DNA from: Candidatus Dormiibacterota bacterium | GTDB lineage: Bacteria > Chloroflexota > Dormibacteria > Dormibacterales > Dormibacteraceae | NCBI GenBank assembly: GCA_036565325.1 | Contig: DATCNF010000133.1 | Location: forward strand, 1-44,244 | DNA: 44,244 nucleotides | Reading direction: 5' to 3' | Shown here: positions 4,589 to 44,244 of the stretch, in pieces | How the letters are laid out: every line of letters begins with the position of its first letter | Numbering within the stretch: the stretch's first letter is position 1 | The notes under the pieces: generated by a model | The model's database searches: none | Told to the model about the DNA's origin: nothing | What the model saw: only the letters and a program-made list of their open reading frames with translations | Translations under genes and position numbers: made by a program

Positions 4589-5647
<1,059 letters not shown>

Positions 5648-5651
5648 GTCC

Positions 5652-5687
5652 CCCTCCCCGCGCGCGGGGAGGGTAGGGGTGGGGACG
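5652..5687 (+). repeat. SD/anti-SD hairpin repeat, copy C (CCCTCCCCGCG/CGCGGGGAGGG palindrome plus G-rich tail TAGGGGTGGGGACG); also a terminator-like hairpin after the ATPase gene
   Basis: Perfect 22-nt palindrome at 5652-5673, starting 4 nt after the TGA at 5645-5647. The tail gives four G-runs (GGGG A GGG TA GGGG T GGGG), a G-quadruplex-type motif. The reverse complement matches copy D at 21789-21820. Confidence 0.7.
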
Positions 5688-7488: not shown

Positions 7489-7533
7489 ACGCTAGCGCCC
7501 CCACCGCGCCCCTCCGGCCTGCTGCCCAGGCCA

Positions 7534-7554
7534 CCTCCCCCGCAAGCGGGGAGG
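7534..7554 (-). terminator. Terminator-like hairpin of the CCTCCCC/GGGGAGG type after the IlvD-family gene
   Basis: CCTCCCCCGC-AA-GCGGGGAGG (one bulged C), starting 4 nt after the minus-strand stop at 7558-7560. No U-tract. Confidence 0.5.
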
Positions 7555-7557
7555 AGT

Positions 7558-9225
7558 TCACCAGGTGACCGCGCCCTCGCTCGCGCTCTTGACCTGGGCC
7601 GCGTACTTGGCCATTACGCCCGTGCGGTACTGGGGTTCGGGCGGCGACCAGTCGCGCATGCGCTCGGCGATGTCCACGCCCTCCACGTCGATGGTGCGGT
7701 TGGCCACGTCGATCATGATCACGTCGCCGTCGCTGAGCGCCGCCAGCGGTCCCCCGACGGCGGCTTCGGGGGCCACGTGGCCGATCATGAAGCCCTGGGT
7801 GGCGCCCGAGAAGCGGCCGTCCGTGAGCAGCGCCACCGAATCGCCCAGGCCCTGGCCGACGATGGCGCCGGTGACCTGCAGCATCTCGCGCATACCGGGC
7901 CCCCCGCGCGGCCCCTCGTAGCGGATCACGACCACGTCTCCGGGGTGGACCTGGCGGTTCAGGACCGCCGCCAGGGCATCCTCCTCGCGGTTGAAGACCC
8001 GGGCCGGGCCGCGGTGGTTGTGGGGAAGGTGGTGGGCGATCTTGACGACCGCGCCCTCGGGTGCCAGGCGCCCCTTGAGGATGGCCAGTCCGCCCTCCTT
8101 GGAAAAGGGGTTGTCGAGCTGGCGCACCACCTCCTGGCCCGGCGTCTCGGTCACCGCCGCGCACTCCTCGGCCAGGGTCTTGCCGGTCACCGTCATGGCG
8201 TCGCCGTCCACGAAGCCGCCCTCGATCAGGCGCTGGGTGAGCACCGCGATCCCACCCGCCCGGTGCAGCTCGGGCGCCGCGAAGCGCCCGGCGGGCTTGA
8301 GGTCGCAGAGCAGCGGCGTGCGCCGCGAGATGCTGTCGATGTCGTCGACCGTGAACTGGATCCCCAGCTCGCGCGCGAACGCGATCAGGTGCAGCACCGC
8401 GTTGGTCGAGCCGCCCGAGGCCGCGACCGCCGCGGCCGCGTTCTCGAGCGCGCGCCGGTTGAGGATCTGTGAGGGGCGCCGGCCCGCCTCCAGCACGCGC
8501 ATCGCCAGCCGGCCGACCTCCTCGGAAGCATGGCGCTTGGCCGGATCCATGGCCGGGATCGAGTTGAAGCCGACCGGCGAGACGCCCAGCACCTCGAGCA
8601 CCATCGACATCGTGTTGGCGGTGTACTGGCCGCCGCAGGCGCCGGCGCCGGGGCAGGCCACAGCCTCCAGCTCGCGCAGGTCCTTCTCGCTCATTTTGCC
8701 CGCCGAGACCGCTCCGATCGCCTCGTACACCTCCCCCACCGCGACCTGGCGGCCGCGGAAGTTGCCGGCGTAGATGGAGCCCGCGTAGACCACCACGGCG
8801 GGGCGGTCGAGCCGCGCCACGGCCATCACCGCGGCGGGGTTGGTCTTGTCGCAGGAAGCGATGCAGACCAGGCCGTCGAAGTAGTGGCCGCGTGCCACCA
8901 GCTCGATTGAGTCGGCAATGAGCTCCCGCGAGACGAGGGATGTCTTCATGCCCTCGGTGCCCATCGTGATCCCGTCCGAGATCGCGATCGTGTTGTACTC
9001 CATGGGCGTCCCGCCCGCCTCGCGAACGCCCTTCTTGACGTGCTCCGCCAGCTCGCGGTGATTGAAGTTGCAGGGCATGGTCTCGATCCAGGAGTGCGCG
9101 ACGCCCAGGATCGGCTTCTCAAGGTCCTCGTGCGTGTAGCCGATGTTGAGCAGGAAGGAGCGCGCGGCCGCCCGTGGCACGCCGTCGTACAAGGTCCTGG
9201 ACAGGGCCCGCAGGTCCTCTGGCAT
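7558..9225 (-). CDS. IlvD/Edd-family dehydratase (dihydroxy-acid or sugar-acid dehydratase)
   Basis: Family motifs: SWIETMPCNFNH, AISDGITMGTEGM, ASCDKTNPA, CPGAGACGGQYTANTM. ATG 9225 overlaps the upstream stop (TGATG). The 21 extra N-terminal codons in the ORF track overlap the previous gene. Confidence 0.9.
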   Translation of the reverse strand: MPEDLRALSRTLYDGVPRAAARSFLLNIGYTHEDLEKPILGVAHSWIETMPCNFNHRELAEHVKKGVREAGGTPMEYNTIAISDGITMGTEGMKTSLVSRELIADSIELVARGHYFDGLVCIASCDKTNPAAVMAVARLDRPAVVVYAGSIYAGNFRGRQVAVGEVYEAIGAVSAGKMSEKDLRELEAVACPGAGACGGQYTANTMSMVLEVLGVSPVGFNSIPAMDPAKRHASEEVGRLAMRVLEAGRRPSQILNRRALENAAAAVAASGGSTNAVLHLIAFARELGIQFTVDDIDSISRRTPLLCDLKPAGRFAAPELHRAGGIAVLTQRLIEGGFVDGDAMTVTGKTLAEECAAVTETPGQEVVRQLDNPFSKEGGLAILKGRLAPEGAVVKIAHHLPHNHRGPARVFNREEDALAAVLNRQVHPGDVVVIRYEGPRGGPGMREMLQVTGAIVGQGLGDSVALLTDGRFSGATQGFMIGHVAPEAAVGGPLAALSDGDVIMIDVANRTIDVEGVDIAERMRDWSPPEPQYRTGVMAKYAAQVKSASEGAVTW

Positions 9226-9896
9226 CAGTGACGAACCCTCCTCATCTCGGCCAGCTGGGCGGGGTCGAACTCGGGCGAGCGGACCCACCGCAGCAGCTTC
9301 TGTTCGCGTTCGACCACGCGGTCGCAGGCGGCCGGCAGCTCCGCCGCTATCGCCTCCGGTATCGACAGCACGCCGTGCTGGTCGGCGGCCAGGAGGTCGC
9401 CCGGCCGCACGCTGAGCGCGCCCACCGACACCTCCTCGCCGGCCGCCAGCACGCGCACATAGGCGTGCGAGACCCCCGGTCCCCGAGCGAAGAACTGGAA
9501 GCCCATCTCGCGCGCCTCCTGGAGGTCGCGCACGCAGCCGTTGGTGATGGCGCCCACGCAGCCCAGCGCCTTGAAGATGGTGGCGTTGACCTCGCCCCAG
9601 AGCGAGCCGTGGCCGGGCGGGTCGTCGAGGTCCTGCACGACCACGAAGCGCGGCGCGGGCACCTCCTGCACGTGCCGCCAGAGCGGCGATTGGTCGTCGG
9701 TCCCCTGGCCGCGGGCGCGGATCAGCGCGGTCGCCGCGTAGCCGACAGCCGTGCCCAGCTCGGGGAAGAGGCAGCGGATGTCCATGGAGGCGAAGCCGGC
9801 GTCGCGCGGCCGGACGTCGAAGGTCTCGATGCCGTTGCTCAGCGTCGGCGTGTCGTAGCGCCGCAGCGCCTCTAAGACTTCGGGGCTCAACGTCAT
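9225..9896 (-). CDS. RraA-family protein (4-hydroxy-4-methyl-2-oxoglutarate aldolase / oxaloacetate decarboxylase-like)
   Basis: 223 aa. GSLWGEVNATIFKALGCVGAITNGCVRD matches the RraA/HMG-aldolase core. ATGA overlap with the upstream gene. Confidence 0.8.
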   Translation of the reverse strand: MTLSPEVLEALRRYDTPTLSNGIETFDVRPRDAGFASMDIRCLFPELGTAVGYAATALIRARGQGTDDQSPLWRHVQEVPAPRFVVVQDLDDPPGHGSLWGEVNATIFKALGCVGAITNGCVRDLQEAREMGFQFFARGPGVSHAYVRVLAAGEEVSVGALSVRPGDLLAADQHGVLSIPEAIAAELPAACDRVVEREQKLLRWVRSPEFDPAQLAEMRRVRH

Positions 9897-16757: not shown

Positions 16758-16764
16758 GCGAGAC

Positions 16765-16837
16765 AACCTCCCCACTAGCTGGGGAGGTCCCTCGCAGCGA
16801 AGCTGCGAGGGGGTGGGGGCGATGTAAGCCCCCCACC
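16765..16837 (+). repeat. SD/anti-SD hairpin repeat, copy A (three consecutive hairpins) in a convergent intergenic spacer
   Basis: H1 CCTCCCCA-ctagc-TGGGGAGG (16767-16787). H2 CCCTCGCAGC-gaa-GCTGCGAGGG (16789-16811). H3 GGTGGGGGC-gatgtaa-GCCCCCCACC (16812-16837). Collinear with copy B at 21317-21375. Confidence 0.8.
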
Positions 16838-20070: not shown

Positions 20071-20898
20071 TCAGAGCCGCGCCAGCTCCTCTTCGACGCG
20101 CGCCAGCAGGCGGTCGGCGGCGTAGTCGTCGTACGCGCGGCGGTCGTAACACAGCGTGAGGAAACAACGTCCCTCGCGTATCGCTCCTTGCGCGAGGATG
20201 CCGGGCTCGCCCGGGTTCACCAGCGGAAACGCCATCAGGGCGCCGCCGCCGCCGACATTGGTGATCGTGAAGCCCCCGCCGGTCACCTCGTCCGGCCGGA
20301 GTCCCGCTGCCCGCGCCCGCGCTGCCAGATCGGCGATCCGGTCAGACACCTGGTCGAGGTCGAGCGCCGGCACGTCCTTCACCACCGGCACCAGCAGGCC
20401 GCCCGGCACCTCCACCGCCACGCCGACATTGGCGACCGGCACCGCCGCTGCCAGCGCCTTTACGAAGTAGGACGTCCAGCTCCGCGCACCGCGCTGGATG
20501 TGGGACACGTCGACCTCGCGCACGCAGGCGCCCTGGGGGATGCGTGCCCGCGCCTCCTGCATGCGCTCGGCGATGCGCCGTCGCATCGAGCTGAGGCCGC
20601 CGGCGGGCGCCGGGGCCACGGCGGCAGGCGGGGGCTGCGTCATCGCGTGGTGGACGCCGACCCGTGGCCCGTCATCCCCGATCCGCGCGATGACCTGGCC
20701 CACCGGCACCGTCTCGCCGGCCGCGACCAGGATCTCCAGCACCCCGTCCGCCGGCGCCTCCAGCTCGGAGTTGACCTTGTCGGTCTCGATCTCGACCAGC
20801 GGCTCGCCCTTGCGCACGGCCTCCCCGGCCTGCTTGAGCCAGCGCGAGACGGTTCCCTCGACCAGGGTGTCGGCCAGCTTGGGCAGCTCGACGTCCAT
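20071..20898 (-). CDS. Lipoyl-domain E2-like acyltransferase with shortened core, no PSBD, and Arg replacing the catalytic His
   Basis: Lipoyl domain with IETDKV. A Pro/Ala linker runs straight into the core (SSMRRRIAERM, GLLVPVVKD, GGGFTITNVGG). The position of DHRxxDG reads YDRRAYDD (Arg codon 20140-20142). Confidence 0.8.
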   Translation of the reverse strand: MDVELPKLADTLVEGTVSRWLKQAGEAVRKGEPLVEIETDKVNSELEAPADGVLEILVAAGETVPVGQVIARIGDDGPRVGVHHAMTQPPPAAVAPAPAGGLSSMRRRIAERMQEARARIPQGACVREVDVSHIQRGARSWTSYFVKALAAAVPVANVGVAVEVPGGLLVPVVKDVPALDLDQVSDRIADLAARARAAGLRPDEVTGGGFTITNVGGGGALMAFPLVNPGEPGILAQGAIREGRCFLTLCYDRRAYDDYAADRLLARVEEELARL

Positions 20899-20923
20899 GA
20901 CGCCGAGATTATCCGGGCGCCGC

Positions 20924-21313
20924 TTATGAGCTACTCGAACGCCGTCTGACCCAGATCAGCGCCGGCGCCCAGGTCAGGGCGCCGGCTGCCAGGAGCGCCC
21001 ACTCCAGCCCGCGTACGGCGGGCATCTCGACCAGGGCGCCGAAGATGCACATCGACGCCGCGCCCGCCAGCAGGAAGGCCCCCGGGAAGAGCGCCCAGGC
21101 GCTGTACCAGGGCGGGGCGCCTTCGCGGTCGCTGAGGCGGTCGGTGAGGATCACGGCCAGCGCCACCAGCAGCGCGGGCACGCTCATGCTCAGGGCCCAG
21201 GGCGCCTGGACTCCGCCCGCCATGGCCGCGATCAGGGGCTGGATGGCGCAAAGCGTGAGCCCAGCCGGAACCGTGAAAGCGAGCAGCCGAAGGGTGGCCG
21301 AGGCGGGGGGCAT
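20924..21313 (-). CDS. Small hypothetical membrane protein (about 4 TM)
   Basis: ATG 21313 overlaps the upstream stop (TGATG) and lies 7 nt after GGGGAGG. 129 aa, hydrophobic, high GC3. The upstream part of ORF 20924..21673 is shadow. Confidence 0.65.
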   Translation of the reverse strand: MPPASATLRLLAFTVPAGLTLCAIQPLIAAMAGGVQAPWALSMSVPALLVALAVILTDRLSDREGAPPWYSAWALFPGAFLLAGAASMCIFGALVEMPAVRGLEWALLAAGALTWAPALIWVRRRSSSS

Positions 21314-22803
21314 CAAACAACCTCCCCGCTCGCCGGGGAGGTCCCTCGCGGCGCAGCCGCGAGGGGGTGGGGACGTTCCGCCTCTAGCGACCGCTTGAGC
21401 ACGGCGAGAAAGCGCCCGGCGTCGGCGCCGTCGACGGCGCGGTGGTCGACCGACAGGGCCAGGTAAGCCTTGCCGTCGCGCACCGCTCCCACCCGGAGCG
21501 TCGCGCTCTGGCCCGGGCGCACTGCGGGGAGGCCGAGCAGGGAGCCGGAGCTGCCGTAGTCGACCAGGGTGAAGGTGCCGCCGCCGCGGGCGGGGGAGAG
21601 GAGGCCGAGGTCGAGGTCGATCGAGACCTGGTCGTGGAGCAGGATGCCGTCCCAGGTGAAGGTGGCGTTGCACTGGGGGACCGCCGCGCAGGCCTCGGCG
21701 ACCGCGGCCACCACCGCCTCCAGGTGGGCTTCGGGGAGTTCCACTTCGACGACGCTGGTTGCCTCGGGGATGGTGGTGTCGTACGGCTCCCCCACCCCAA
21801 CCCTCCCCGGGGGGGAGGGGGTCTGTTGCATCACCTTTCTAGCCGCCTCGGCGATTCCCCTTCGGTTAGGGATCACCGCGTCTTCCATGCGGTCGGCCAC
21901 CGGGATGCCCCCGATGTCGGGCATGGCGACGCGGGCGGGCGGGACGCGGAGCACGCCCGCTTCGGCGGCCAGGGCGCACAGCTCGGCGCCCAGGCCCATG
22001 GTCAGCGTGTCCTCGTGGACCACCAGGAGGCGGCCGGTCCGGCGCAATGCATTCAGGAGGCCTTCGCGGTCGAGCGGCAGCAGCCAGCGCAGGTCGAGCA
22101 CCTCGGCCTCGATCCCTTCGGCGGCCAGCTCCTCGGCCGCGGCCAGCGCCTCGTGCAGCATCATCCCCCAGCCCACGATGGTCAGGGCGTCGCCGGCGCG
22201 CGCGACCCGCAGCCGCCCGTCGTCGACCACGTGCTCGCCCTCCGGCACCGGGCCGCTGATCGCCCGGTAGGTGCGCTTGTGTTCCAGGAAGAGCACCGGG
22301 TCGGGGTCCCGGATGGCGGCGGTGAGCATCCCCTTGGCGTCGTCCGGGAACGACGGGGCCATCACCTTCAGCCCGGGGACGTGCGCGTAGAACGCCTCCA
22401 CGCTCTGGGAGTGGTAGGGGCCGCCCCGGAACCCGCCGCCGTAGGCGGTGCGCATGACCAGCGGGCACGTCCAATCGCCGCCGGTGCGGTAGCGGAGCCG
22501 GGCGGCTTCGCCGGCCAGGTGGTCCATGGCGGCGTGCATGAAGTCGGCGAACTGGATCTCAGCCACCGGCCGCAGGCCGCGCATGGCGATCCCCATCGAG
22601 ATGCCTGAGATCGCCAGCTCGGCCATCGGCATGTCGATGACGCGCTCGGGCCCGAAGCGGTCGAGCAGCCCCTCGGTGGCGCGGAAGACGCCACCCAGGC
22701 GCCCGATGTCCTCGCCCAGCAGGATGACGCGCTCGTCCCGCGTCATCTCCTCCGCGAGAGACTCGCGGACCGCGTCAAGAAGTGTGAGCGTACGTGTGCT
22801 CAA
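21313..22803 (-). CDS. 2-oxoacid (or acetoin) dehydrogenase E1 beta subunit fused to a partial E2 acyltransferase core domain
   Basis: Residues ~1-325 are E1 beta (LLGEDIGRLGGVF, MPMAELAISG, PSFPDDAKGML). A linker PSPPGRVGVG follows, then ~140 aa with GGTFTLVDYGS and LSVDHRAVDGADAGRFL (His codon 21442-21444). The last ~18 aa are encoded by repeat copy B. TTG start overlaps E1 alpha by 29 nt. Confidence 0.8.
   Translation of the reverse strand: MSTRTLTLLDAVRESLAEEMTRDERVILLGEDIGRLGGVFRATEGLLDRFGPERVIDMPMAELAISGISMGIAMRGLRPVAEIQFADFMHAAMDHLAGEAARLRYRTGGDWTCPLVMRTAYGGGFRGGPYHSQSVEAFYAHVPGLKVMAPSFPDDAKGMLTAAIRDPDPVLFLEHKRTYRAISGPVPEGEHVVDDGRLRVARAGDALTIVGWGMMLHEALAAAEELAAEGIEAEVLDLRWLLPLDREGLLNALRRTGRLLVVHEDTLTMGLGAELCALAAEAGVLRVPPARVAMPDIGGIPVADRMEDAVIPNRRGIAEAARKVMQQTPSPPGRVGVGEPYDTTIPEATSVVEVELPEAHLEAVVAAVAEACAAVPQCNATFTWDGILLHDQVSIDLDLGLLSPARGGGTFTLVDYGSSGSLLGLPAVRPGQSATLRVGAVRDGKAYLALSVDHRAVDGADAGRFLAVLKRSLEAERPHPLAAAPRGTSPASGEVV
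21317..21375 (+). repeat. SD/anti-SD hairpin repeat, copy B, inside the 3' coding tail of the E1beta-E2' gene
   Basis: H1 CCTCCCCG-ctcgc-CGGGGAGG (21321-21341). H2 CCCTCGCGGC-gca-GCCGCGAGGG (21343-21365), then GGTGGGGACG. Relative to copy A, both stems carry a two-sided A:T to G:C change. Confidence 0.8.
21789..21820 (-). repeat. SD/anti-SD hairpin repeat, copy D (inverted relative to copy C), in frame as the E1beta/E2' linker
   Basis: Plus strand: CCCCACCCCAACCCTCCCCGGGGGGGAGGGG, matching the reverse complement of copy C. Minus strand: CCCUCCCC/GGGGAGGG hairpin, then GGGAGG, 6 nt, in-frame GTG (21795), plus four G-runs. Confidence 0.7.
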
Positions 22804-23722
22804 GCACGTCCTCGGGGTCGCCTTCCGGCTGACCCTCCGCCCACTCGGCCGCCTCGGCGGCCACCGTCATCGCCTCCTCGTCGACAGCGTCGGTCCGCGC
22901 TGGGTCCAGCTGCTGACGCAGCAGCAGAAGGGGGTCGCGCCGCCGCGCCTCCTCGACCTCCTCGCGCGTCCGGTAGCGCGTGTCGTCGTCGTTGGACGTG
23001 TTGGGCAGGAACCGGTAGCAACGCGCCTCGATGTACGTCGGCCCCTCTCCGGCTCGGGCCCGCGCGATCGCGCGCTCGGCTGCATCGTGCATCGCCGCCA
23101 CCTCCATGCCGTCGACCGACTCCCCTGGGATGCCGTAGCCGGCGGCACGGGTGGCGATCTCCGGCTGGGCCGTCTCCAGGCGGGAGGGAACCGACTGCGT
23201 GTAGAAGTTGTTCTCGACGCAGAACACGCAGGGCAGCCGGTGGATGGCGGCGATGTTCATCGCCTCGTGCACCTCGCCCTTCTGGGCGCCGCCGTCTCCG
23301 AAGCTGATCCAGGTGACCTGGTCGGTGCCCAGCAGCTTCGATCCCCAGGCCACCCCGACGCCGTGGGTGACGTGGTTGGGCTGCGGGCCCTGCAGGCTGA
23401 CGATGCCGTGCCGGCGCGACCCCCAGTGCGCGTAGGGCTGGCGGCCGTGCGCGCAGGGGTCGTCGCGGCGCGCGAAGAAGTGCAGGAACACCTCGCGCGG
23501 GGTCAGCCCGAGCGCCAGCATCGCCGCCAGGTCGCGGTAGTGCGGGGCCACAAAGTCGTGGCCCGCGCGCAGGGCCAGCCCGTAACCGACGCCGATCGCC
23601 TCGTGCCCCGAGCTGGGCACGGCGAAATGCGCCCGTCCCGACCGCGCCAGCCGCCACATGCGCTCATCCATCTGGCGGGCTGTGGACATGACCTGGTAGG
23701 CGCGGTCGAGATCAAGAGTCAC
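22775..23722 (-). CDS. TPP-dependent 2-oxoacid (or acetoin) dehydrogenase E1 alpha subunit
   Basis: TPP motif GDGGAQKGEVHEAMNIAAIHRLPCVFCVENN. GTG 23722 overlaps the methyltransferase stop (GTGA). The upstream part of ORF 22775..23998 is shadow. Confidence 0.9.
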   Translation of the reverse strand: MTLDLDRAYQVMSTARQMDERMWRLARSGRAHFAVPSSGHEAIGVGYGLALRAGHDFVAPHYRDLAAMLALGLTPREVFLHFFARRDDPCAHGRQPYAHWGSRRHGIVSLQGPQPNHVTHGVGVAWGSKLLGTDQVTWISFGDGGAQKGEVHEAMNIAAIHRLPCVFCVENNFYTQSVPSRLETAQPEIATRAAGYGIPGESVDGMEVAAMHDAAERAIARARAGEGPTYIEARCYRFLPNTSNDDDTRYRTREEVEEARRRDPLLLLRQQLDPARTDAVDEEAMTVAAEAAEWAEGQPEGDPEDVLEHTYAHTS

Positions 23723-24552
23723 CGGCGTGTGATCAGCACCTGCGTGGACCCCTGAAGCTCGATCCGCCCCTCGCCGACCCGGGCGCGCACAACTTCCACC
23801 GCCCGCCTCGCGACCCGCTCCCGCTCCGCGGGCTCCAGCGCCTCCAGCCGCCAGGCGCAGGCCCACCAGCCGCAGGACTTGGCGACCAGGTCCTCCGGGC
23901 TTTCGTAGTGGATGGCTTCCTCGAAGGTGAGGACCAGCGGCTCCCGAAAACCCGCCGCCACCAGTGCCGCCCGCGCCCGGTCGGGATCCATCAGGCACTC
24001 GATCGTGGCCGTGCGGTCGGGCGTGGCCGGGGGCGCGGGAATCCCGGCCAGCGCCTCCTCGATGAGCCGGGCGGCCTCGCGGCCGTGGGAGCGGGCGGGG
24101 AGGCTGGCCGCGAACAGGCCGCCGTCGCGCAGCACGCGCCGCGCCTGCCAGAGCGCGCGCAGGAGGTTGGGGCAGAACTGCAGGCCGTGGCCGCAGGCCA
24201 CGGCGTCGAAGGTGGCGTCCGGGAACTCGAGCTCCTCGATGTCCATCTTCAGCACTTCGACCTGGCTGGGCGCCGCCTGGCGCAGGAGGTCGAGCATGCC
24301 GTCGGCGAGGTCCACCGCCACCACCTGGCCCGCAGGCCCCACGGCCTCCGCCAGCGGCAGGGTGAGCGTGCCCGGGCCGCAGGCCAGGTCCAGCACCCGG
24401 TCGCCCGGCCCCGCGCCCAGCGCCTCGACGACGTGGAACCGGCCGCGGTGCTCGCGGGGGTCCTGGATGCCCATGACGCGGTCCCGGTAGGCCTCCGCGT
24501 GGCGGCTGAAGACGCCGGCGAAAACCTCCTTCGAGCTCAGGGCGCCCGCCAT
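23719..24552 (-). CDS. Class I SAM-dependent methyltransferase (UbiE/Methyltransf_11-like)
   Basis: 277 aa. SAM motif I VLDLACGPGTLTL, then VVAVDLADGML and LRDGGLF. Confidence 0.85.
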   Translation of the reverse strand: MAGALSSKEVFAGVFSRHAEAYRDRVMGIQDPREHRGRFHVVEALGAGPGDRVLDLACGPGTLTLPLAEAVGPAGQVVAVDLADGMLDLLRQAAPSQVEVLKMDIEELEFPDATFDAVACGHGLQFCPNLLRALWQARRVLRDGGLFAASLPARSHGREAARLIEEALAGIPAPPATPDRTATIECLMDPDRARAALVAAGFREPLVLTFEEAIHYESPEDLVAKSCGWWACAWRLEALEPAERERVARRAVEVVRARVGEGRIELQGSTQVLITRR

Positions 24553-25703
24553 TCGGCCTCCAGGGCCAGGGCCACCTCCACCAGGCCGCGCTCGGCTCCG
24601 GAGCGGCCGACCACCTGTATGCCGACCGGCAGGCCGGTGGTGGGGGCCGGCAGGGTGATCACCGGCTGGCCGCTGACGTTGAAGGGCCGCGTGAACCCGA
24701 GCAGCGTGCCCCGCTCCAGGGTCTGCCCGATCACCGGTGCCACGTAGGGTGTCGCCGGCAGCAGGAGCGCGTCCAGGCCCTGCAGCGCGGCGTCGGCCTC
24801 GGCGCGCAGCCGGCTCATCTCCAGCAATGCCTCCACGTAGCGCTGCCGCGGCACCCGCGAGCCCTGCTCGAGCAGGCCGCGCACATCCGCGCCGTACTTT
24901 TCCGGGACCTTCTCGAACCAGCGCTGGTGATAGGCGTAGGCCTCCAGGAGCAGGATCGTGATCCCGGCCTCGTGCATGCGCTCGCGGTCGGGGAAGTCGA
25001 CCTCGGGGACGCGCGCGCTGACAGCGGCCCAGGCCCGGCCGGTGGTCTCGTCGAGCGCGAGCTGGCCGGCCCAGCCCCGGGGGACGCCGAGCTTGAGCTC
25101 GGCTCGGGCCCGCGGGCGGGCAGGAACCAGGTCGGTGAGCTCGCTCATGGCCTCCAGGGCGCGCGCCGCCGAGGCCACGTCGGGCGCCAGCGGCCCCAGA
25201 GTGTCCTGGGTGCGGCTGAGCGGGATCACCCCCTCCGTGTCGACCGTGCCCAGCGTCGGCTTGAAGCCGACCACACCGCAGAAAGCGGCGGGGATCCGGA
25301 TCGAGCCGCCGGTGTCGGAGCCCAGCGCCCAGTCGCAGATGCCCATGGCGACCGCCACCGCCGAGCCGCCCGAGGAGCCGCCGGCCACCCGCTCCGGGTC
25401 GTGGGGGTTGCGGATGGGGCCGTAGTGGGGGTTGTTGCTGGTGGCGCCGTAGGCGAACTCGTGGAGGCTGGCCTTGCCCATCACCACCGCGCCGTGGGCC
25501 CGCATGCGCTCGACCACGGGCGCGTCCCGCTCCGCGGGGACCCTGGGCATGATCACGCCGCCGGCCGTGGTCACGGTGCCGCGCACGTCGACCAGGTCCT
25601 TGACCGCCACCACCTGGCCCTCGCCCTGCTCCTCGGTCAGTGAGATGAAGGCGTTGAGGTGGGCGAGCTCGCGCGCCCGGGCGCGCGCATGATCGGGGGT
25701 CAT
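24537..25703 (-). CDS. Amidase-signature (AS) family amidase
   Basis: ATG 25703 gives 388 aa. VAVKDLVDV lysine, GGSSGGSAVAVA signature, GSDTGGSIRIPAAFCG. The upstream part of ORF 24537..27284 is shadow over the peptidase gene. Confidence 0.9.
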   Translation of the reverse strand: MTPDHARARARELAHLNAFISLTEEQGEGQVVAVKDLVDVRGTVTTAGGVIMPRVPAERDAPVVERMRAHGAVVMGKASLHEFAYGATSNNPHYGPIRNPHDPERVAGGSSGGSAVAVAMGICDWALGSDTGGSIRIPAAFCGVVGFKPTLGTVDTEGVIPLSRTQDTLGPLAPDVASAARALEAMSELTDLVPARPRARAELKLGVPRGWAGQLALDETTGRAWAAVSARVPEVDFPDRERMHEAGITILLLEAYAYHQRWFEKVPEKYGADVRGLLEQGSRVPRQRYVEALLEMSRLRAEADAALQGLDALLLPATPYVAPVIGQTLERGTLLGFTRPFNVSGQPVITLPAPTTGLPVGIQVVGRSGAERGLVEVALALEAEWRAP

Positions 25704-25714
25704 TGGCGGGCGGG

Positions 25715-27556
25715 CTACGCGTCCGGGGGGAGGCCGAAGTTCTTGAACAGGAAGGCGGCGATCAGCCTGTAGGCCTGCACCTGGTTGGCGCGCTTGCTGA
25801 AGTCGTGGCCCTCGTCCTCGAAGACGTGGTACTCGACGTCGCGGCCCAGCGCGCGCAGGGTCTCCACCATCTGGTCCGACTCCGGCTTGACCACCCGCGG
25901 GTCGCGCGCGCCCTGGAGCACCAGCAGCGGCGCCCGCACGCCCTCGACGTGGCTGATCGGCGAGCGCTGCATGAGCATCTCCGCGTCCTGGTCCGGGTCG
26001 CCCACCCACTTCTTCATCGAGGACCGCCAGTGGGGCGGCACGGCGCGCGCGAAGGTGACCAGGTTGGCGGGGCCCACCAGGTCGATGCCGCAGCGCCAGT
26101 AGTCGGGCAGCCGCGTCATCGCCGAGAGGGTGGCAAAGCCGCCGAACGACGCCCCGTAGATGGCGATGCGCTCGGAGTCGACCCAAGTTTGCTCGCGCAG
26201 CCACCTGGCCGCGTGCTCGATGTCCTTGAGCTCGGCCCCGCCCCAATCCCGGTGGATCAGCTTCTGGTAAGCCATCCCGTAGCCGGTGCTGCCGCGGATG
26301 TTGGGCGCCAGGATGGCCACGCCGCGGCTGAGCAGGTACTGATAGAAGGGCGAGCTGCGCGTGACCTGCGTGCGCTCCTGAGCCTCCGGGCCGCCGTGGA
26401 TAGAGAGCAGGACCGGGAGCCGGCCATCGGCGTGCTTGGGCCGGTACAGCCAGGCCGGCACCTGGAGACCGTCGAAGGTCGGATAGCGCACCAGCTCGGG
26501 CTCGACCAGCTCGACTTCCGGGATGCCACCCAGGAACGACTCCGTGACGCGGCTCACCAGCTGCTGGCGGAGGTCGGCGACGTAGACGTCGAAGGGCCGG
26601 GTGCCGGTACCCACCAGGCCCGCCACCCGGCGGCCGTCGCGGGAGACCGCGAACTGCATGCAGACGCCGGCCGGCATCTGCGGGAACTCGAGCTCGCGGT
26701 TGGCGGCCAGGTTGCGGGCGTGGAAGCGCGAGTAGCCGTCCTCGTTGACGGTGTAGGCGAGGATGCCGCGGTCGGCCGAGAGCGCCGCGTGCTCGATTCC
26801 CCACTCGAGGTGGATCAGCGGCTCCCGGGCGCCGGTCTCGAGGTCGATGACCTCGACGTAGTGGTGGTCGTGGCCGCGGTCGGTGACGTTGTAGAGGCGG
26901 CGGCCGTCGGCGCTGAAGCCGATCGCCAGGTTGAGCTGCTCGCCCTGGTGAGGCGTCAGGTCGCGGCGCCGGCCGGTGCCGACCTCGACCAGGTCGACGT
27001 GCTGGTCGGTGTTGCCGATCAGCTCGATCACGGCCGCCTGGCGGCCGTCGGGATGCCAGGCGGCCGCGTAGAACTTGCCCTCGGGGGCGTCCAGGACCAG
27101 GCTGTACTCCCCTTCCTCGATGTGCAGCTCGTAGAGGCTGACGTCGGTCGGCCGCTCCTGGTTGCCGGACATCAGCATCCGTCGGCCGTCGTCGGAGACC
27201 GGCCCCACCGAGTACTGGACGTCGGGGCGGTCGGTGACCGCGCGCGGCCAGCCGCCGCCGGCGGGCAGCAGATTGATCTGCCACTGCTCGGCGCCGTGGT
27301 GGTCGAGCTCGACCACGAACCCGTGCGGCGTCCAGGCGTGGTGGCGCACCGCCTCCTCCTCCTGCGTCGTCAGCTGGCGAGGCCAGCCGCCGGCCACCGG
27401 GGAGGTCCAGAGGTTGAACTGGCCGGAGCCGTCGTGGGTGTAGGAGACCTGCTCGGCGTCAGGCGAGAAGTCGAGGTTGTTGAGCATGTAGAAGCGCCGG
27501 AGGGCGAAGAACTGCTCGAAGCTCGGGCGGGCCGGGGCCTTGGTCTGGACGCTCAC
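25715..27556 (-). CDS. S9-family serine peptidase (prolyl oligopeptidase / acylaminoacyl-peptidase type)
   Basis: 613 aa. N-terminal beta-propeller-like region and a C-terminal alpha/beta hydrolase with nucleophile motif GASFGG and a DPRV...H region. GTG start directly abuts the coxG stop. Confidence 0.9.
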   Translation of the reverse strand: MSVQTKAPARPSFEQFFALRRFYMLNNLDFSPDAEQVSYTHDGSGQFNLWTSPVAGGWPRQLTTQEEEAVRHHAWTPHGFVVELDHHGAEQWQINLLPAGGGWPRAVTDRPDVQYSVGPVSDDGRRMLMSGNQERPTDVSLYELHIEEGEYSLVLDAPEGKFYAAAWHPDGRQAAVIELIGNTDQHVDLVEVGTGRRRDLTPHQGEQLNLAIGFSADGRRLYNVTDRGHDHHYVEVIDLETGAREPLIHLEWGIEHAALSADRGILAYTVNEDGYSRFHARNLAANRELEFPQMPAGVCMQFAVSRDGRRVAGLVGTGTRPFDVYVADLRQQLVSRVTESFLGGIPEVELVEPELVRYPTFDGLQVPAWLYRPKHADGRLPVLLSIHGGPEAQERTQVTRSSPFYQYLLSRGVAILAPNIRGSTGYGMAYQKLIHRDWGGAELKDIEHAARWLREQTWVDSERIAIYGASFGGFATLSAMTRLPDYWRCGIDLVGPANLVTFARAVPPHWRSSMKKWVGDPDQDAEMLMQRSPISHVEGVRAPLLVLQGARDPRVVKPESDQMVETLRALGRDVEYHVFEDEGHDFSKRANQVQAYRLIAAFLFKNFGLPPDA

Positions 27557-28373: not shown

Positions 28374-28904
28374 ATGAAGCACAAGGTCGCGACCACCATC
28401 AATGGGAGGGGCCGGCAAGACGAAGTCGAGGCTCGACTCCTCCTCGTCCACTACATACGCGACGTCGCCGGCCTGACCGGCACCCATGTCGGGTGCGACA
28501 CCAGCCAGTGCGGCGCCTGCACGATCCTGGTCGATGGCAAGGCCATCAAGTCCTGCACCATGTTCGCCGTCCAGGCCGAGGGGCGCCAGCTCACGACCAT
28601 CGAGGGCCTGGCCGACGGGGACACGCTGCATCCCATCCAGCAGGCCTTCTGGGATGAGCACGGACTGCAGTGCGGCTACTGCACGCCCGGCTTCATCATG
28701 GCCGCCAAGTACCTCCTCGACACCAACCCCAGCCCCAGCGACGACGAGATCCGCAAGGGCCTGGAAGGCAACCTGTGCCGCTGCACCGGCTACGTCAACA
28801 TCATCAAGGCCGTGAAGACGGCCTCCCAGGTCATGGGTGGCGCGCAGCAGGCGAAGCCTGCGACCGCCGGCCAGCCGGTGGGCCAGCCCACGGCAGGGAG
28901 CTAG
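28374..28904 (+). CDS. coxS: Molybdenum hydroxylase small subunit, [2Fe-2S]-binding (CoxS/CutS-like)
   Basis: Both Fe-S cluster motifs are present: [10 protein letters not shown] and CGYCTPGF...CRCTGY. Confidence 0.95.
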
Positions 28905-28908
28905 AGCG

Positions 28909-31449
28909 ATGGCGATCAGCAAGATGATCGGCGCCAAGATCCATCGCCGCGAAGATCCCCGGCTGGTCTCCGGCGGCGGCCGCTACATGGACGACTTCAA
29001 ACGGCCCAACACCACCTACGCCGCTTTCATCCGCAGCCCTTACGCGCACGCCAAGATCCGGATGATCGACCCCACCGAGGCCAAGCAGGCGCCCGGGGTC
29101 GTGGCCGTGTTCACCGCGAAGGACTTCGAAGGCGTGCTGATGGGCCCGGCGCCGGTCGCGCCGGCCTTCGTGGCCGAGAAGCACACGGTTCCCGACCGGC
29201 CGCCGCTGCCGCTCGACGAGGTCGTCTACCAGGGCCAGCCCGTGGCCATGGTGATCGCCGAGTCGAAGGCCGAGGCCGCCGACGCGGCGGCGCTGGTCCA
29301 GGTCGACTACGAGCCGCTGCCCGCGGTCATGGACCTCGAGAAGGCCCTCGACCCCAGCAGCCCCAAGGCGCACACCGCGCTGCCCGACAACATCGCCTGG
29401 GACCTGGTCTACAACGCTGACGCCGACTCGAGCTTCGCCGAGGCCGAGGTCACCGTGAAGGAGCGGATCCTGCAGCAGCGCCTGGCGCCGACTCCAATGG
29501 AGACGCGCAGCGTGATGGCCGAGTGGAGCCCACACGAGGGCTCGATGACGCTCTGGCTCTCCAACCAGGGTCCCCACTTCATCCGCCTCTTCGTGGGCGG
29601 CGCGCTGGGGCTTCCCGAAAACCGCATGCGCGTCATCTCGCCCGATGTGGGCGGAGGCTTCGGCGCCAAGATCTGCCCCTACCCCGAGGACTACCTGGTG
29701 CCGGGGGCCGCCAAGATTCTCAAGCGACCGGTCAAGTGGACCGAGAGCCGCACCGAGTCGATCCAGGTCACCACCCACGGCCGCGGCCAGATCTTCGACG
29801 TCGAGGTCGCCGGCATGAAGGACGGCACGCTGCTGGGCATGAAGGTCACCCAGTACCTGGACGCGGGGGCCTACATCGGCACCTTCGGCGCCTTCCAGGC
29901 CTGCGCCTGCCTGCTGGCGGGTGGCGGCTACAAGTGGAAGCAGATCGCCGCCCGCACCATCGGCGTGCTCACCAACAAGGTTTCCACCGATCCCTACCGC
30001 GGCGCCGGCCGGCCCGAGGCCACCCACCTGGTGGAGCGCATGGTCGACGTCTTCGCTCGCGAGATCGGGATGGACCCCGCGGCGGTCCGCAAGAAGAACT
30101 TCGTCCAGCCCGGAGACTTCCCCTACACCCAGAACTTCGGGCTGGTCATGGACTCCGGCGACTACGAGCGCTCGCTCGACAAGGCGATGCAGATCGTCGG
30201 CTACGAGCAGGTGCGCAAGGAGCAGGAGGAGGGCCGTAAGCAGGGCCGCTATATCGGCATCGGGCTCTCCACCTGGATCGAGATCTGCGGCTTCGGCCCG
30301 GCGGCCGCCACCGCCCCGGCCACCGGCGGGATCGGGCTCGTGGAGTCGGCACAGGTACGCGTGTATCCCACCGGTTCGGTGACGGTCTGGACCGGCACCC
30401 ACTCGCACGGCCAGGGGCACGAGACCACGTTCAGCCAGATCGTGGCCGACACCCTGGGCATCCCCTACGACCAGATCGAGATCAAGCACGGCGACACCGG
30501 CGAAGGCACCGCCTTCGGCTACGGGACCTACGGGTCGCGCTCGCTGGCCGTCGGCGGGATGGCGATCAAGATGGCCTCGCAGAAGGTCGTCGACAAGGCC
30601 AAGCAGATCGCCGCCCATTCCTTCGAGGCGGCCGAAGAGGACGTCGTCTTCGAAGGCGGCGAGTTCTACGTCAAGGGCTCGCCCGACAACCGGCGCAAGA
30701 TCCAGGAGGTCGCGTTCGAGGCCTACGGCGCCGCGCTGCCGGAAGGCATGGAGCAAGGGCTGGAGGCGGTCGCCTACTTCGATCCGCCCAACTTCGTGTG
30801 GCCCTTCGGCGCCCACATCTGTGTGGTCGAGGTGGACATCGAGACGGGCGCCGTCAAGATGCTGAAGTACGTGGCCGTGGACGACTGCGGCAACGTGATC
30901 AACCCCATGATCGTGGAGGGCCAGCTGCACGGCGGAATCGCGCAGGGCATCGCCCAGGCCCTCTTCGAAGAAGTGATCTACGCGGAGGACGGCAGCCTGC
31001 GCACGGGCACGCTGCTCGACTACGCGATCCCCACGGCCAACGAGATGCCGCCGCTCACCCTAGACAGCACGGTGACCCCCTCGCCGACCAACGCGCTCGG
31101 CGTCAAGGGCATCGGTGAGGCGGGCACGATCGCGGCCAGCGGGGCCGTGATCAACGCCATCGTGGACGCGCTTTCGCCCCTTGGCGTGCGCCACGTCGAC
31201 ATGCCGGCCAGCCCGGACCGGCTCTGGAAGCAGCTGCAGGAGCACCGCACCGGCCTCGAGGGCTACCACACGGTGGCCGTCGCCGACACCCCCGAGGTTG
31301 ACGACGCGCCGCGCAAGGGCGGGCCCGAGTCCGAGCTGCCCGGCAGCCTGGACGAGGGCGAGATCGGCAAGACCGGCGGCAAGGCCGAGCCCGGCTCGGA
31401 AGGCTCGCCGCAGGAGGGGCCGCGCCACCAGAAGGACTACGACCGATGA
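28909..31449 (+). CDS. Molybdenum hydroxylase large subunit (xanthine dehydrogenase family; form-II CoxL-like) with ~65-aa acidic/Gly/Pro C-terminal extension
   Basis: ATG 28909 lies 8 nt after AGGGAG. Aldehyde-oxidase/XDH a/b-hammerhead and MoCo-binding domains are present. The active-site loop reads DPYRGAGRPEA (about 29989-30021). GIGEAGTIAA lies near the C-terminus. Confidence 0.9.
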   Translation: MAISKMIGAKIHRREDPRLVSGGGRYMDDFKRPNTTYAAFIRSPYAHAKIRMIDPTEAKQAPGVVAVFTAKDFEGVLMGPAPVAPAFVAEKHTVPDRPPLPLDEVVYQGQPVAMVIAESKAEAADAAALVQVDYEPLPAVMDLEKALDPSSPKAHTALPDNIAWDLVYNADADSSFAEAEVTVKERILQQRLAPTPMETRSVMAEWSPHEGSMTLWLSNQGPHFIRLFVGGALGLPENRMRVISPDVGGGFGAKICPYPEDYLVPGAAKILKRPVKWTESRTESIQVTTHGRGQIFDVEVAGMKDGTLLGMKVTQYLDAGAYIGTFGAFQACACLLAGGGYKWKQIAARTIGVLTNKVSTDPYRGAGRPEATHLVERMVDVFAREIGMDPAAVRKKNFVQPGDFPYTQNFGLVMDSGDYERSLDKAMQIVGYEQVRKEQEEGRKQGRYIGIGLSTWIEICGFGPAAATAPATGGIGLVESAQVRVYPTGSVTVWTGTHSHGQGHETTFSQIVADTLGIPYDQIEIKHGDTGEGTAFGYGTYGSRSLAVGGMAIKMASQKVVDKAKQIAAHSFEAAEEDVVFEGGEFYVKGSPDNRRKIQEVAFEAYGAALPEGMEQGLEAVAYFDPPNFVWPFGAHICVVEVDIETGAVKMLKYVAVDDCGNVINPMIVEGQLHGGIAQGIAQALFEEVIYAEDGSLRTGTLLDYAIPTANEMPPLTLDSTVTPSPTNALGVKGIGEAGTIAASGAVINAIVDALSPLGVRHVDMPASPDRLWKQLQEHRTGLEGYHTVAVADTPEVDDAPRKGGPESELPGSLDEGEIGKTGGKAEPGSEGSPQEGPRHQKDYDR

Positions 31450-31627
31450 CCCGGGCCGCACCGGGCCAGCCGGACGTCGACGACGCTCCCCGCCGCGGGG
31501 GGCCGCAGTCGCCGCTGCCGGGAAGCCTCGACGAGGGCCAGATCGCGGGCACCGGCGGCTCCGCCGAGCCCGGTTCCGAAGGCTCGCCGCAAGAAGGACC
31601 ACGCCACCAGGAGGATTACGACCAGTG
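31270..31627 (+). repeat. Tandem duplication, 2 x 179 bp, spanning the coxL 3' end and the junction to coxM
   Basis: GTTGACGACGCG... at 31297 recurs as GTCGACGACGCT... at 31476, and the stop codons at 31447-31449 and 31626-31628 are 179 nt apart. The encoded peptides match at about 42 of 52 aligned residues (my count). Confidence 0.85.
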
Positions 31628-31628
31628 A
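31446..31628 (+). CDS. 60-aa ORF paralogous to the CoxL C-terminal tail (acidic, Gly/Pro-rich)
   Basis: ATG overlaps the coxL stop (ATGA), and its own stop overlaps the coxM GTG (GTGA). Sequence: ...DVDDAPRRGGPQSPLPGSLDEGQIAGTGGSAEPGSEGSPQEGPRHQEDYDQ. Divergence from copy 1 is mostly synonymous in the last 14 codons. Confidence 0.5.
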   Translation: MTRAAPGQPDVDDAPRRGGPQSPLPGSLDEGQIAGTGGSAEPGSEGSPQEGPRHQEDYDQ

Positions 31629-32431
31629 TACCCGCTGCGTTCGAATACGCCCGCGCCTCCTCGGTGCAGGAGGCATCCGACCTGCTCGGCAAGTTCGGCG
31701 AGGACGCCAAGGTCCTCGCCGGCGGCCACAGCCTGATCCCGCTGATGCGGCTGCGCCTGGCGCAGCCGTCCGCGCTCGTGGACATCACCGGCGTCAAGGA
31801 GCTCTCCTACATCACGCGGGAGAACGGCAAGCTCCGGATCGGCGCCCTCACCCGCCACGTGGAGATCCACAACAGCGAGGAGATCAAGCAGAGCCTGCCG
31901 ATCCTGGCCGAGGTGGCCTCCGAGGTGGGGGACAACCAGGTGCGCAACATGGGCACCATCGGCGGCGTCATCGCGCACGCCGACTCGGCCGGCGACTACC
32001 CGACGCTCTGCGTCATGCTCGACGCCGAGATCGTCACCAACAAGCGGCGGCACGCCGCGCACGAGTTCTTCCAGGACCTCTTCACGACCCCCCTGGAGAA
32101 CGACGAGATCGTGTGCGAGGTCGTCTTCCCGGTGGCCAGCGGGGCGCACAAGTACATCAAGTTCCGGCGCCGCCTCTTCGACTGGGCGATCGTGGGCGCG
32201 GCCGCCCAGCGCACCGACCAGGGGTGGCGGATCGGGCTCACCAACGTGGGGCCGACGCCGGTCCGGGCGGTGGCGGTCGAGCAGGCGCTCGGCCAGGGTG
32301 CCTCGCCTTCAGAGGCTGCCGAGCACGCCTCGGACGGGCTCAACCCGAGCGGCGACATCCGGGCCACCCCCGAGTACAAGAAGCACCTGGCGAGGGTGCT
32401 GACACGACGCGCCATCGAACAGTCTCAATAG
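31625..32431 (+). CDS. coxM: Molybdenum hydroxylase medium subunit, FAD-binding (CoxM/CutM-like)
   Basis: GTG 31625 gives VIPAAFEYARASSVQEASDLL...AGGHSLIPLMRLRL, a typical CoxM N-terminus. The upstream part of ORF 31181..32431 is a frame shadow over the coxL tail. Confidence 0.9.
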   Translation: MIPAAFEYARASSVQEASDLLGKFGEDAKVLAGGHSLIPLMRLRLAQPSALVDITGVKELSYITRENGKLRIGALTRHVEIHNSEEIKQSLPILAEVASEVGDNQVRNMGTIGGVIAHADSAGDYPTLCVMLDAEIVTNKRRHAAHEFFQDLFTTPLENDEIVCEVVFPVASGAHKYIKFRRRLFDWAIVGAAAQRTDQGWRIGLTNVGPTPVRAVAVEQALGQGASPSEAAEHASDGLNPSGDIRATPEYKKHLARVLTRRAIEQSQ

Positions 32432-43957: not shown

Positions 43958-44244
43958 ATGCAGGTGGTCGAGATGCGTCCCGCCCTCACCCCGGCCCGGG
44001 TCTGGTGGCTGGCTGCCCGGCCGGCCACCCTCGCCGCTTCGGTGTCCCCGGTGCTGGTGGGGACGGCGGTCGCGGTCCACGGCGGCGGCGCCCGCTTCGG
44101 CGCCGGGATCGCCGCGCTGGTGGTCGCCATCGCGATGCAGCTGGGCGTCAACTACGCCAACGACTACTCCGACTTCGTGCGCGGCGCCGACACCCCGCGC
44201 CGGCGGGGCCCCGTGCGCGCGGCCGCCTCGGGCCTGGTGCCACC
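43958..44244 (+). CDS. menA: 1,4-dihydroxy-2-naphthoate polyprenyltransferase, 3' end cut by window edge
   Basis: ATG 43958 opens MQVVEMRPALTPARVWWLAARPATLAASVSPVLVG...QLGVNYANDYSDFVRGAD, the UbiA-fold MenA N-terminus with the NDYxD motif. The frame stays open to the window end, so it is absent from the ORF track. Confidence 0.85.
   Translation, partial: MQVVEMRPALTPARVWWLAARPATLAASVSPVLVGTAVAVHGGGARFGAGIAALVVAIAMQLGVNYANDYSDFVRGADTPRRRGPVRAAASGLVP

Follow-up and report, generated by a model that had tools for sequence, protein, structure and literature searches.

A 44,244-nt stretch of DNA from a Candidatus Dormiibacterota bacterium (contig DATCNF010000133.1, assembly GCA_036565325.1; hereafter the window) carries, within an open reading frame (ORF) of 496 aa, a short C- and G-rich repeat, designated copy D, which is translated in frame between an E1beta domain and a shortened catalytic domain of E2 type (E2'). 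With a probability of roughly 0.8, copy D would be a tolerated passenger, inserted in the linker of an already fused gene, and not a relic of the fusion; it is an in-frame “stowaway” repeat of an architecture already described in Escherichia coli and in methanogens. The parts of the element and of its host gene are as follows, all on the minus strand.

21788 to 21822: copy D, short-form repeat, recognized by pattern matches, with boundaries set by metagenome depth and loose contig ends
21819 to 21812: C-arm CCCTCCCC
21811 to 21809: loop CCC
21808 to 21801: G-arm GGGGAGGG
21800 to 21799: spacer TT
21798 to 21789: mirror G-tail GGGGTGGGGG
21793 to 21807: Shine-Dalgarno (SD)-like GGGAGG (21807-21802), 6-nt spacer and in-frame GTG (21795-21793), all repeat-consensus positions
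21823 to 22803: E1beta part of the fused ORF, residues 1-327, delimited by Pfam, PDB alignment and AlphaFold2
21373 to 21786: short E2-type catalytic domain, residues ~340-477, with a DHRAVDG motif, without lipoyl domain and without peripheral subunit-binding domain (PSBD)

From 21821 to 21788 the minus strand reads CCCCC-T-CCCCCCC-GGGG-A-GGG-TT-GGGG-T-GGGGG-A, the length of the C7 run being that of the assembly, as Logan contigs break within the repeat. Position 21819 is the first codon position of a codon of ORF 21313..22803(-), and the codons from there to 21790 (CCC TCC CCC CCG GGG AGG GTT GGG GTG GGG) are translated as P329-S-P-P-G-R-V-G-V-G338. A first-pass annotation of the window had described this peptide, PSPPGRVGVG, in frame at 21789-21820 and had placed it at an E1beta/E2-like junction. 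The observation is confirmed as first described, in sequence and frame, and the junction is supported by three delimitations. In Pfam, Transket_pyr and Transketolase_C occupy residues 7-317 and 2-oxoacid_dh, matched by the C-terminal part of the domain, residues 408-475; PDB E1beta chains (324-325 aa) align to residues 6-326; and in an AlphaFold2 model (34 homologues) the final E1beta helix spans residues 314-326 and the first E2' strand residues 351-355, with a predicted local distance difference test score (pLDDT) below 50 at residues 333-348. Copy D therefore sits exactly at the E1beta/E2' junction, and its peptide is in a region predicted as disordered. The frame is continuous throughout the fused ORF, whose G + C content at third codon positions (GC3) is 0.92.

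The fused architecture extends far beyond the distribution of the element. The three Pfam domains are united in a single protein in all of the 120 best homologues (65-90% identity, 467-538 aa), among whose source names are Dormibacteraeota, Eremiobacteraeota/Elarobacter and others. An alignment of 34 homologues displays high conservation of both domains, including the DHRAVDG motif, and a hypervariable linker. The repeat signature was found in five of 111 parsed linkers (P0001, P0002, P0006, P0007 and P0008), the others being unrelated and short (median of 9 residues past the last E1beta helix). Ten orthologous loci were then compared in their DNA (L001-L007, L128, L129 and L130). The element is found at the same codon position, always in the same orientation, in L001-L006, L128 and L129, which with the window make up the nine element-bearing loci. 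The linker of L001 reads CCTCCCC GCTCGGC GGGGAGG T CCCTCGC GCA GCGAGGG GGAGGGGG, and those of L002, L003 and L005 consist of CCTCCCC, a 7-nt loop and GGGGAGG T CCGGCCC GSA GGGCCGG GGWGGGG; L006 has a short form like that of the window, and L004, L128 and L129 hold decayed yet recognisable copies. The outgroup loci L007 (77% identity) and L130 (75%) have fused genes with no trace of the element at the DNA level, and no unfused E1beta/E2' orthologue was seen in any locus examined. In a neighbour-joining tree of the conserved parts, the nine element-bearing genes form one clade, with L007 and L130 outside. Since the fusion occurs in more than 100 homologues with unrelated linkers, the repeat in one subclade only, and the outgroups lack it, the repeat would have entered an existing linker. 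These comparisons show the E1beta-E2cat fusion to be much older and more widespread than the linker copy, and we infer, as the simplest history, that a linker already in place received the repeat in a single insertion.

Copy D belongs to a repeat family with several copies in the window. The pattern CCTCCCC-N3-12-GGGGAGG occurs 5 times in the 44 kb against 0.02 expected; with a GGWGGGG tail added, 6 matches are obtained at 5 sites against 0.00 expected, the surplus match being due to two overlapping matches at the 7534 site. Two forms are represented, a short one (hairpin, 2 nt, G-tail) comprising copies D and C, and a long one (hairpin, second hairpin, G-tail) comprising the other three copies. 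The C-arm is complementary to the G-arm across a short loop in all five window copies and in the intact orthologous copies. The earlier statement that copy D is copy C placed on the opposite strand of the genome was correct, both being of the same short form. The copies other than D are located as follows.

5648 to 5687 (element 5653-5684), plus strand: copy C, short form, sense; fills the 42-nt gap from a MalK-like ABC ATPase gene (stop at 5647) to an EamA transporter gene (GTG start at 5690), its G-tail ending 4 nt upstream of that GTG
16763 to 16821, plus strand: long-form copy, sense, beginning 6 nt past the stop of an AMP-binding ligase gene
7499 to 7557, minus strand: long-form copy, sense, following the stop of an IlvD/Edd dehydratase gene (7558-9288, minus strand)
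21317 to 21375, plus strand: long-form copy (hairpin 1, hairpin 2 and GGTGGGG), antisense to the fused gene

The three intergenic copies are thus all in sense orientation and begin 5-10 nt past the stop of a Pfam-confirmed upstream gene. The copy at 21317-21375 encodes the final ~20 codons (RPHPLAAAPRGTSPASGEVV) of the 496-aa ORF, just upstream of its TGA (21315-21313), whose A also serves the ATG of the following gene; the residues derived from it (478-496) have a pLDDT below 50. Besides the window, L001, L003, L004 and L128 carry this C-terminal copy; L002, L005, L006, L007 and L129 lack it. The tail is followed by GACG (CGTC on the other strand) in two window copies running into GGGGACG, copy C and the one at 21321, and no GTAG tag was seen at the window copies. 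No RAYT gene was identified, this gene not having been searched for. Rfam gave no family at gathering score in the window and, on six repeat-bearing loci, only chance sub-threshold matches, mostly to miRNA-hairpin models. A G4-like string at 43979-43997 resembles the HPG2 element of E. coli and was rejected as a family member, as it has no C-arm.

The abundance of the repeat in the community of origin was estimated from word depth in four runs of the source soil metagenome. Unique flanks have a depth of 10-13 and the 21802-21825 bins have means of 224-662 depending on the run, an excess of about 50-fold for copy D; bin means over 21322-21345, in the second copy of the gene, are 106-269. Dozens of contigs exit copy D at 21788/90 and 21821/25 into unrelated sequence. 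The repeat is therefore shown to be multi-copy in the window and to have dozens of copies in the source community.

A succession of events compatible with these observations may be proposed. In the ancestor of the subclade, where the two domains were already fused, the unconstrained linker between them would have received one copy, in the sense direction. This copy could have survived there by virtue of its C- and G-runs being translated into Pro, Ser, Gly and Arg, typical linker residues. Selection would have kept only the length variants preserving the frame, and the integrity of the arms would be due to exchange with other copies, by gene conversion or template switching, or else to selection at the level of structure. 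Four-fold degenerate sites are 0.59-0.74 identical among seven element-bearing loci (0.61-0.74 in comparisons with the window), values which, given the GC3 of 0.92, are close to saturation. The linker loops differ completely between loci; with arms kept while loops and frame change, conservation bears on the nucleotides and not on the peptide. The second hairpin exists in two fully compensated subtypes, a (CCCTCGC/GCGAGGG) and b (CCGGCCC/GGGCCGG). The linker copy is of type a in L001 and of type b in L002, L003 and L005, and has no second hairpin in the window and L006; the C-terminal copy is of type a in the window and L003 and of type b in L001. This distribution is at odds with the gene tree and suggests replacement or conversion between copies, and it is because the subtype swaps between orthologous sites that concerted evolution is favoured over selection on structure. 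The decayed copies of L004, L128 and L129, together with the more than 100 element-free homologues, show that the enzyme has no need for the element.

Several points weigh against a mere passenger. All 14 arm positions are kept in six of the nine lineages despite the near-saturated synonymous divergence; pure neutrality fails to explain these intact arms, which leaves room for some function in situ at the level of the nucleic acid. The difference in hairpin-2 subtype between orthologous sites could stem from several insertions, made independently at one hotspot. Neither a transposase nor any other function that could mobilise the repeat was identified. The predicted hairpin of the short form (-24.7 kcal/mol) is no better than that of shuffled sequences (z = -0.41). 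Finally, the runs containing the window sequence are DNA only, the RNA runs listed sharing at most 7% of its words. We nevertheless rank first a tolerated passenger, possibly refreshed by conversion, and second a structural function in situ.

According to this second explanation, which we regard as rather unlikely, the copy would be kept for its nucleic-acid structure, either a hairpin or G-quadruplex (G4) of the mRNA pausing ribosomes or shaping decay, or a hairpin, triplex or G4 of the DNA bound by a cellular factor, and the peptide would be a by-product. The invariance of the arms under changes of the G-arm frame, the full compensation of the hairpin-2 stems that differ between loci, the mirroring of the G-arm by the tail across phyla (see below) and the predicted advantage of the G4 over the hairpin all speak for it. 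It has to accommodate the decay of three of the copies, the homologues working without the element and the opposite orientation of the second copy in the same gene, and concerted evolution accounts just as well for the conservation and for the subtype swaps.

The folding predictions bear on this point. The motif of copy D, GGGG-A-GGG-TT-GGGG-T-GGGGG, has four G-tracts with 1-2-1 loops, and copy C has GGGG-A-GGG-TA-GGGG-T-GGGG; the long-form copies lack such a set of four tracts with short loops, hairpin 2 replacing the middle loop. The window has no excess of G4 motifs (7 against 10.1 +/- 3.3 under a first-order Markov model), and general enrichment was dropped as an argument, the count being no higher than the Markov expectation; two of the seven have 1-2-1 loops, and both are repeat copies. 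For copy D, ViennaRNA predicts -29.3 kcal/mol when G4 are allowed and -24.7 for the hairpin only, a difference of 4.6. The long form is predicted to fold better than shuffles (z = -3.5 and -4.3); in view of the z of -0.41 of the short form, thermodynamic significance is claimed for the long form alone. It had been annotated at first that the SD-like motif is paired with CCCUCCCC in the hairpin. This pairing exists among several of nearly equal energy, but in the predicted minimum of the short form the outer C-run pairs with the tail and not with the SD-like arm. The companion proposal, a canonical four-run G4 motif able to compete with the hairpin, was upheld by the predicted energies and by the published in vitro switching of the same architecture. 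Competition between hairpin and G4 at copy D, as a generic property of the repeat family, is thus plausible on the basis of these models. The element also has a mirror of triplex type, the G-arm GGGGAGG facing the tail GGTGGGG, and orthologous tails carry T or A at the corresponding position.

Another alternative, which we hold to be very improbable, is that the repeat constitutes a functional internal ribosome-binding site, from which a separate E2' of 160 residues would be produced at the GTG at 21795, with the hairpin or the G4 tuning the ratio of the two products. The motif GGGAGG-GTTGGG-GTG of the window does combine a strong SD-like sequence, an optimal spacing (6 nt, in the range of 5-9 nt) and an in-frame start. 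The predicted E2' fold begins at residue 351, so that a product started at V337 would be complete according to the model, and copy C lies just ahead of a GTG start as well. This part of the first-pass annotation stands as a description of the motif and is not supported as a claim of a functional start. GGGAGG and GTG belong to the invariant portions of the repeat, contained in the G-arm GGGGAGG and in the GGTGGGG tail at all genomic sites. The G-arm is read in three frames in the orthologues: GGG AGG GTT in the window, GGG GAG GTC in L001, L002, L003 and L005, and GGG GGA GGT in L006, giving the peptides GRV, GEV and GGG, respectively. No ATG, GTG or TTG in frame follows the G-arm in seven of the nine loci (L001, L002, L003, L005, L006, L128 and L129); the two exceptions are the window and L004, where the start is ~1 nt past the G-run. 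From the three frames and the in-frame start in two of nine loci, it follows that internal initiation is not a conserved feature. Homologues free of the repeat do not have a comparable signal either. The SD-like GGGAGG, the GTG and the G4 motif would hence be consensus features of the repeat and not adaptations of the fused gene, and internal initiation in this gene is unsupported by the comparison of the loci.

The interpretation of the repeat as the scar of the fusion, an intergenic copy absorbed into frame when the two cistrons joined, had been put forward in the first-pass annotation. It draws on the element beginning two codons past the end of free-standing E1beta proteins, on the intergenic copies of the window lying a few nucleotides past stop codons, and on the second copy, 21317-21375, being truly absorbed into the 3' end of the same ORF. 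The comparison of orthologous loci did not bear it out: all of them are fused, and the linkers outside one subclade are unrelated, the very outcome that the first-pass annotation had named as its refutation. The single-protein architecture of all the best homologues, from several phyla, the linkers devoid of repeat signature in all but five of the 111 parsed, the nearest outgroups, fused and element-free in their DNA, and the lack of any unfused orthologue in the loci examined in practice refute this origin. A misjoined contig across the repeat, which would make the fused ORF unreal, is scarcely credible: the Logan contigs of all four source runs do end or start inside the element and no contig shown spans it, but in nine independent assemblies from other samples this fused gene is found with the element in frame at an identical position, more than 100 homologues are fused without it, and frame and GC3 are maintained over the whole ORF.

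The architecture is not specific to the Dormibacterota. A scan of one genome per species with the pattern CCTCCCC-N3-12-GGGGAGG-N1-30-GGTGGGG returned matches at at least 120 loci, many of them multi-copy, and the phyla among the matches listed comprise Alpha-, Beta-, Gamma- and Deltaproteobacteria, Cyanobacteria (39-47% GC), Bacteroidota, Chloroflexota, Planctomycetota, Nitrospirota and others. Single matches in high-GC genomes may partly be due to chance, the low-GC and multi-copy loci being reliable. At least 153 distinct elements, found at more than 120 loci, have GGGGAGG...GGTGGGG in common. Among the 153 elements listed, the spacer between arm and tail is of 2-3 nt in 96, mostly TT, TTA, CA or CC, and in the elements with a long spacer the spacer itself is a stable hairpin in 88%. 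The run of Gs that follows the A of the G-arm (n2) and the run that precedes the T of the tail (m1) covary in length, with a Spearman coefficient of 0.71 (p = 2e-24), m1 being n2 or n2+1 in nearly every element; this covariation makes the tail a mirror image of the G-arm. The pattern of the family is that of a putative intramolecular triplex of the purine motif and, just as well, that of a G4 with 1-3-1 loops. These matches show the same architecture to be shared by many bacterial phyla. Among the 167 scanned elements from other genomes in the matches listed, several lie inside long ORFs, seven of which are Pfam-confirmed genes.

L039, 3699-3751: T2SSE ATPase, one Pfam match spanning the element
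L065, 504-534: AroE, Pfam domains on both sides of the element
L070, 5367-5398: PurL, Pfam domains on both sides of the element
L122, 3343-3372: MetH, element between the pterin-binding and B12-cap domains, with Pfam matches on both sides
L011, 4092-4178: FtsX permease, Pfam domains flanking or spanning the element
L095, 1366-1409: GlnE-like, conserved motifs resuming downstream as judged by eye
L123, 4640-4670: P-type ATPase, element just before VAMVGDG, motifs resuming downstream as judged by eye

The closest known counterparts are the HPG1 and HPG2 elements of E. coli. Kaplan et al. (2016) described GGGAGAGGG-TTA-GGGTGAGGG in 13 copies and a -CC- variant in 5 copies, with a C-rich arm ~3 nt upstream and circular dichroism (CD) evidence of a switch between hairpin and G4, and proposed no function (PMC5100583). 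Like copy D, these elements consist of a C-rich arm followed by four G-tracts with loops of 1, 2-3 and 1 nt, the tracts GGGAGAGGG and GGGTGAGGG separated by TTA or CC corresponding to GGGGAGGG-TT-GGGGTGGGGG; like the window repeat, they are dispersed, multi-copy and mostly located between genes, and the spacers TTA, TT and CC also dominate the cross-phylum sample. They differ by the tract GGGAGAGGG in place of GGGGAGG and by their reported intergenic location, copy D being translated in frame and another window copy forming the end of an ORF; furthermore, the long form with a nested second hairpin, common in the window repeat, is unlike HPG1 and HPG2. The likeness is one of architecture, the elements being too short for a phylogeny, and may reflect homology or convergence. 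Of 5426 complete E. coli genomes, 5409 contain the composite HPG motif, with a median of 19 sites each, and RefSeq has no feature annotated under the E. coli HPG matches listed. Judging from copy number and sequence, HPG1/HPG2 is presumably identical to BoxC. The latter is an element of 56 bp present in 32 copies (PMC2267715).

In Methanomicrobiaceae, the rPQS repeat GGGGGGTGGGGG-CA-GGGGAGGGGG-CTCG-CCCCCTCCCC forms a hairpin, an antiparallel triplex or a G4 according to CD and S1 probing (PMC8044849). It has nearly the same letters as the window repeat and also lies near gene ends, but its parts are in mirrored order (tail, G-arm, loop, C-arm), its hosts are archaea and all reported copies are intergenic.

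As a translated palindrome, copy D is comparable to the Rickettsia palindromic elements (RPEs), which Ogata and colleagues are said to have reported in 2000, and to intragenic repetitive extragenic palindromes (REPs). In both cases a dispersed palindromic repeat is in frame in genes that stay intact, adds 10-30 residues at tolerant sites, and orthologues free of the insert exist; copy D itself has domains on both sides, insert-free orthologues and a linker location. The window repeat belongs to a different sequence family, without the GTAG tag. Intragenic in-frame GTAG/CGTC REPs are known (Di Nocera et al. 2013, PMC3733652), and no consensus matching the window repeat was found in that paper that would link its CGTC tag to the REP superfamilies defined there. 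The REPs and bacterial interspersed mosaic elements (BIMEs) of enterobacteria and pseudomonads are, like the window repeat, short GC-rich palindromes just past stops of co-directional genes; unlike it, REPs have no mirror G-tail and no G4 potential, and their mobilising enzyme, RAYT, is known, none being known for the present family. REPs and BIMEs are thought to act on mRNA stability, gyrase or other DNA-level processes. In the literature, we found no description of this family in Dormibacterota, nor of in-frame copies of HPG/BoxC type. A tentative generalisation, to which we give somewhat less than even odds, is that elements made of a hairpin and a mirror G-tail form one pan-prokaryotic class of small structured repeats, landing time and again in frame in linkers or loops of essential genes and preserved there in their nucleotides over long periods by conversion or replacement or by selection on structure. 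If this were true, the class would be to many phyla what the palindromic elements are to Rickettsia.

The host gene is noteworthy apart from the repeat, as it combines E1beta with a lipoyl-less, shortened E2 beside a PSBD-less E2 of 275 aa. The neighbouring genes of the operon (window 20071-23722, minus strand, with counterparts at 9076-12652 in L007 and 2037-5289 in L130) are the following.

22775 to 23722, minus strand: E1alpha, 315 aa, sharing 29 nt with the start of E1beta, as in orthologues
20924 to 21313, minus strand: 129-aa ORF without Pfam match, its start overlapping the stop of the fused gene; kept in orthologous loci
20071 to 20898, minus strand: 275-aa E2 with a lipoyl domain, a shortened catalytic domain and no E3_binding (PSBD) match

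The gene order is kept in the orthologous loci: amidase, methyltransferase, E1alpha, fused gene and mostly, thereafter, a gene of ~129-131 aa, which was not called in L005 and L130. The E1beta-E2' fusion is widespread in Dormibacterota and Eremiobacterota, and it may stand in for a PSBD in tethering E1 to the core. In actinobacterial OdhA/Kgd, the E2o catalytic domain is fused to E1o. The host gene resembles this arrangement in having a lipoyl-less acyltransferase domain of E2 type fused to an E1 component and relying on a separate lipoylated E2; it differs in the position of the fusion, at the C-terminus of the E1beta of a heterotetrameric E1, in its shortened E2' and in the phyla concerned.

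Two further observations concern other parts of the window. The 915-aa ORF at 24537-27284 (minus strand) corresponds to an amidase (Pfam, residues 529-901) with a spurious upstream extension; this extension overlaps, in another frame, a candidate ORF at 25715-27556 (minus strand), which matches the peptidase S9-type gene of the orthologues by length and position only, and the orthologues carry two separate genes where the window lists the single 915-aa ORF. A 159-nt direct repeat (31291-31449 and 31470-31628; 77% identity, spacing of 179) falls at the overlap of candidate ORFs 28837-31449 and 31181-32431, both on the plus strand.

These results remove an attractive but wrong story, the repeat being neither a fusion scar nor a designed internal start. 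They link the repeat of Dormibacterota to a hairpin/G4/triplex motif described separately in E. coli and in methanogens, and show that such a motif can live in coding sequence as a linker peptide. The nine orthologous copies, intact, subtype-swapped or decayed, constitute a natural series in which selection on structure can be set against concerted evolution. For genome annotation, the results imply that the Pro/Ser/Gly-rich inserts and the C-terminal tails of SSPLxGEV/TSPxSGE type found in proteins of these phyla are translated repeats and not protein motifs.

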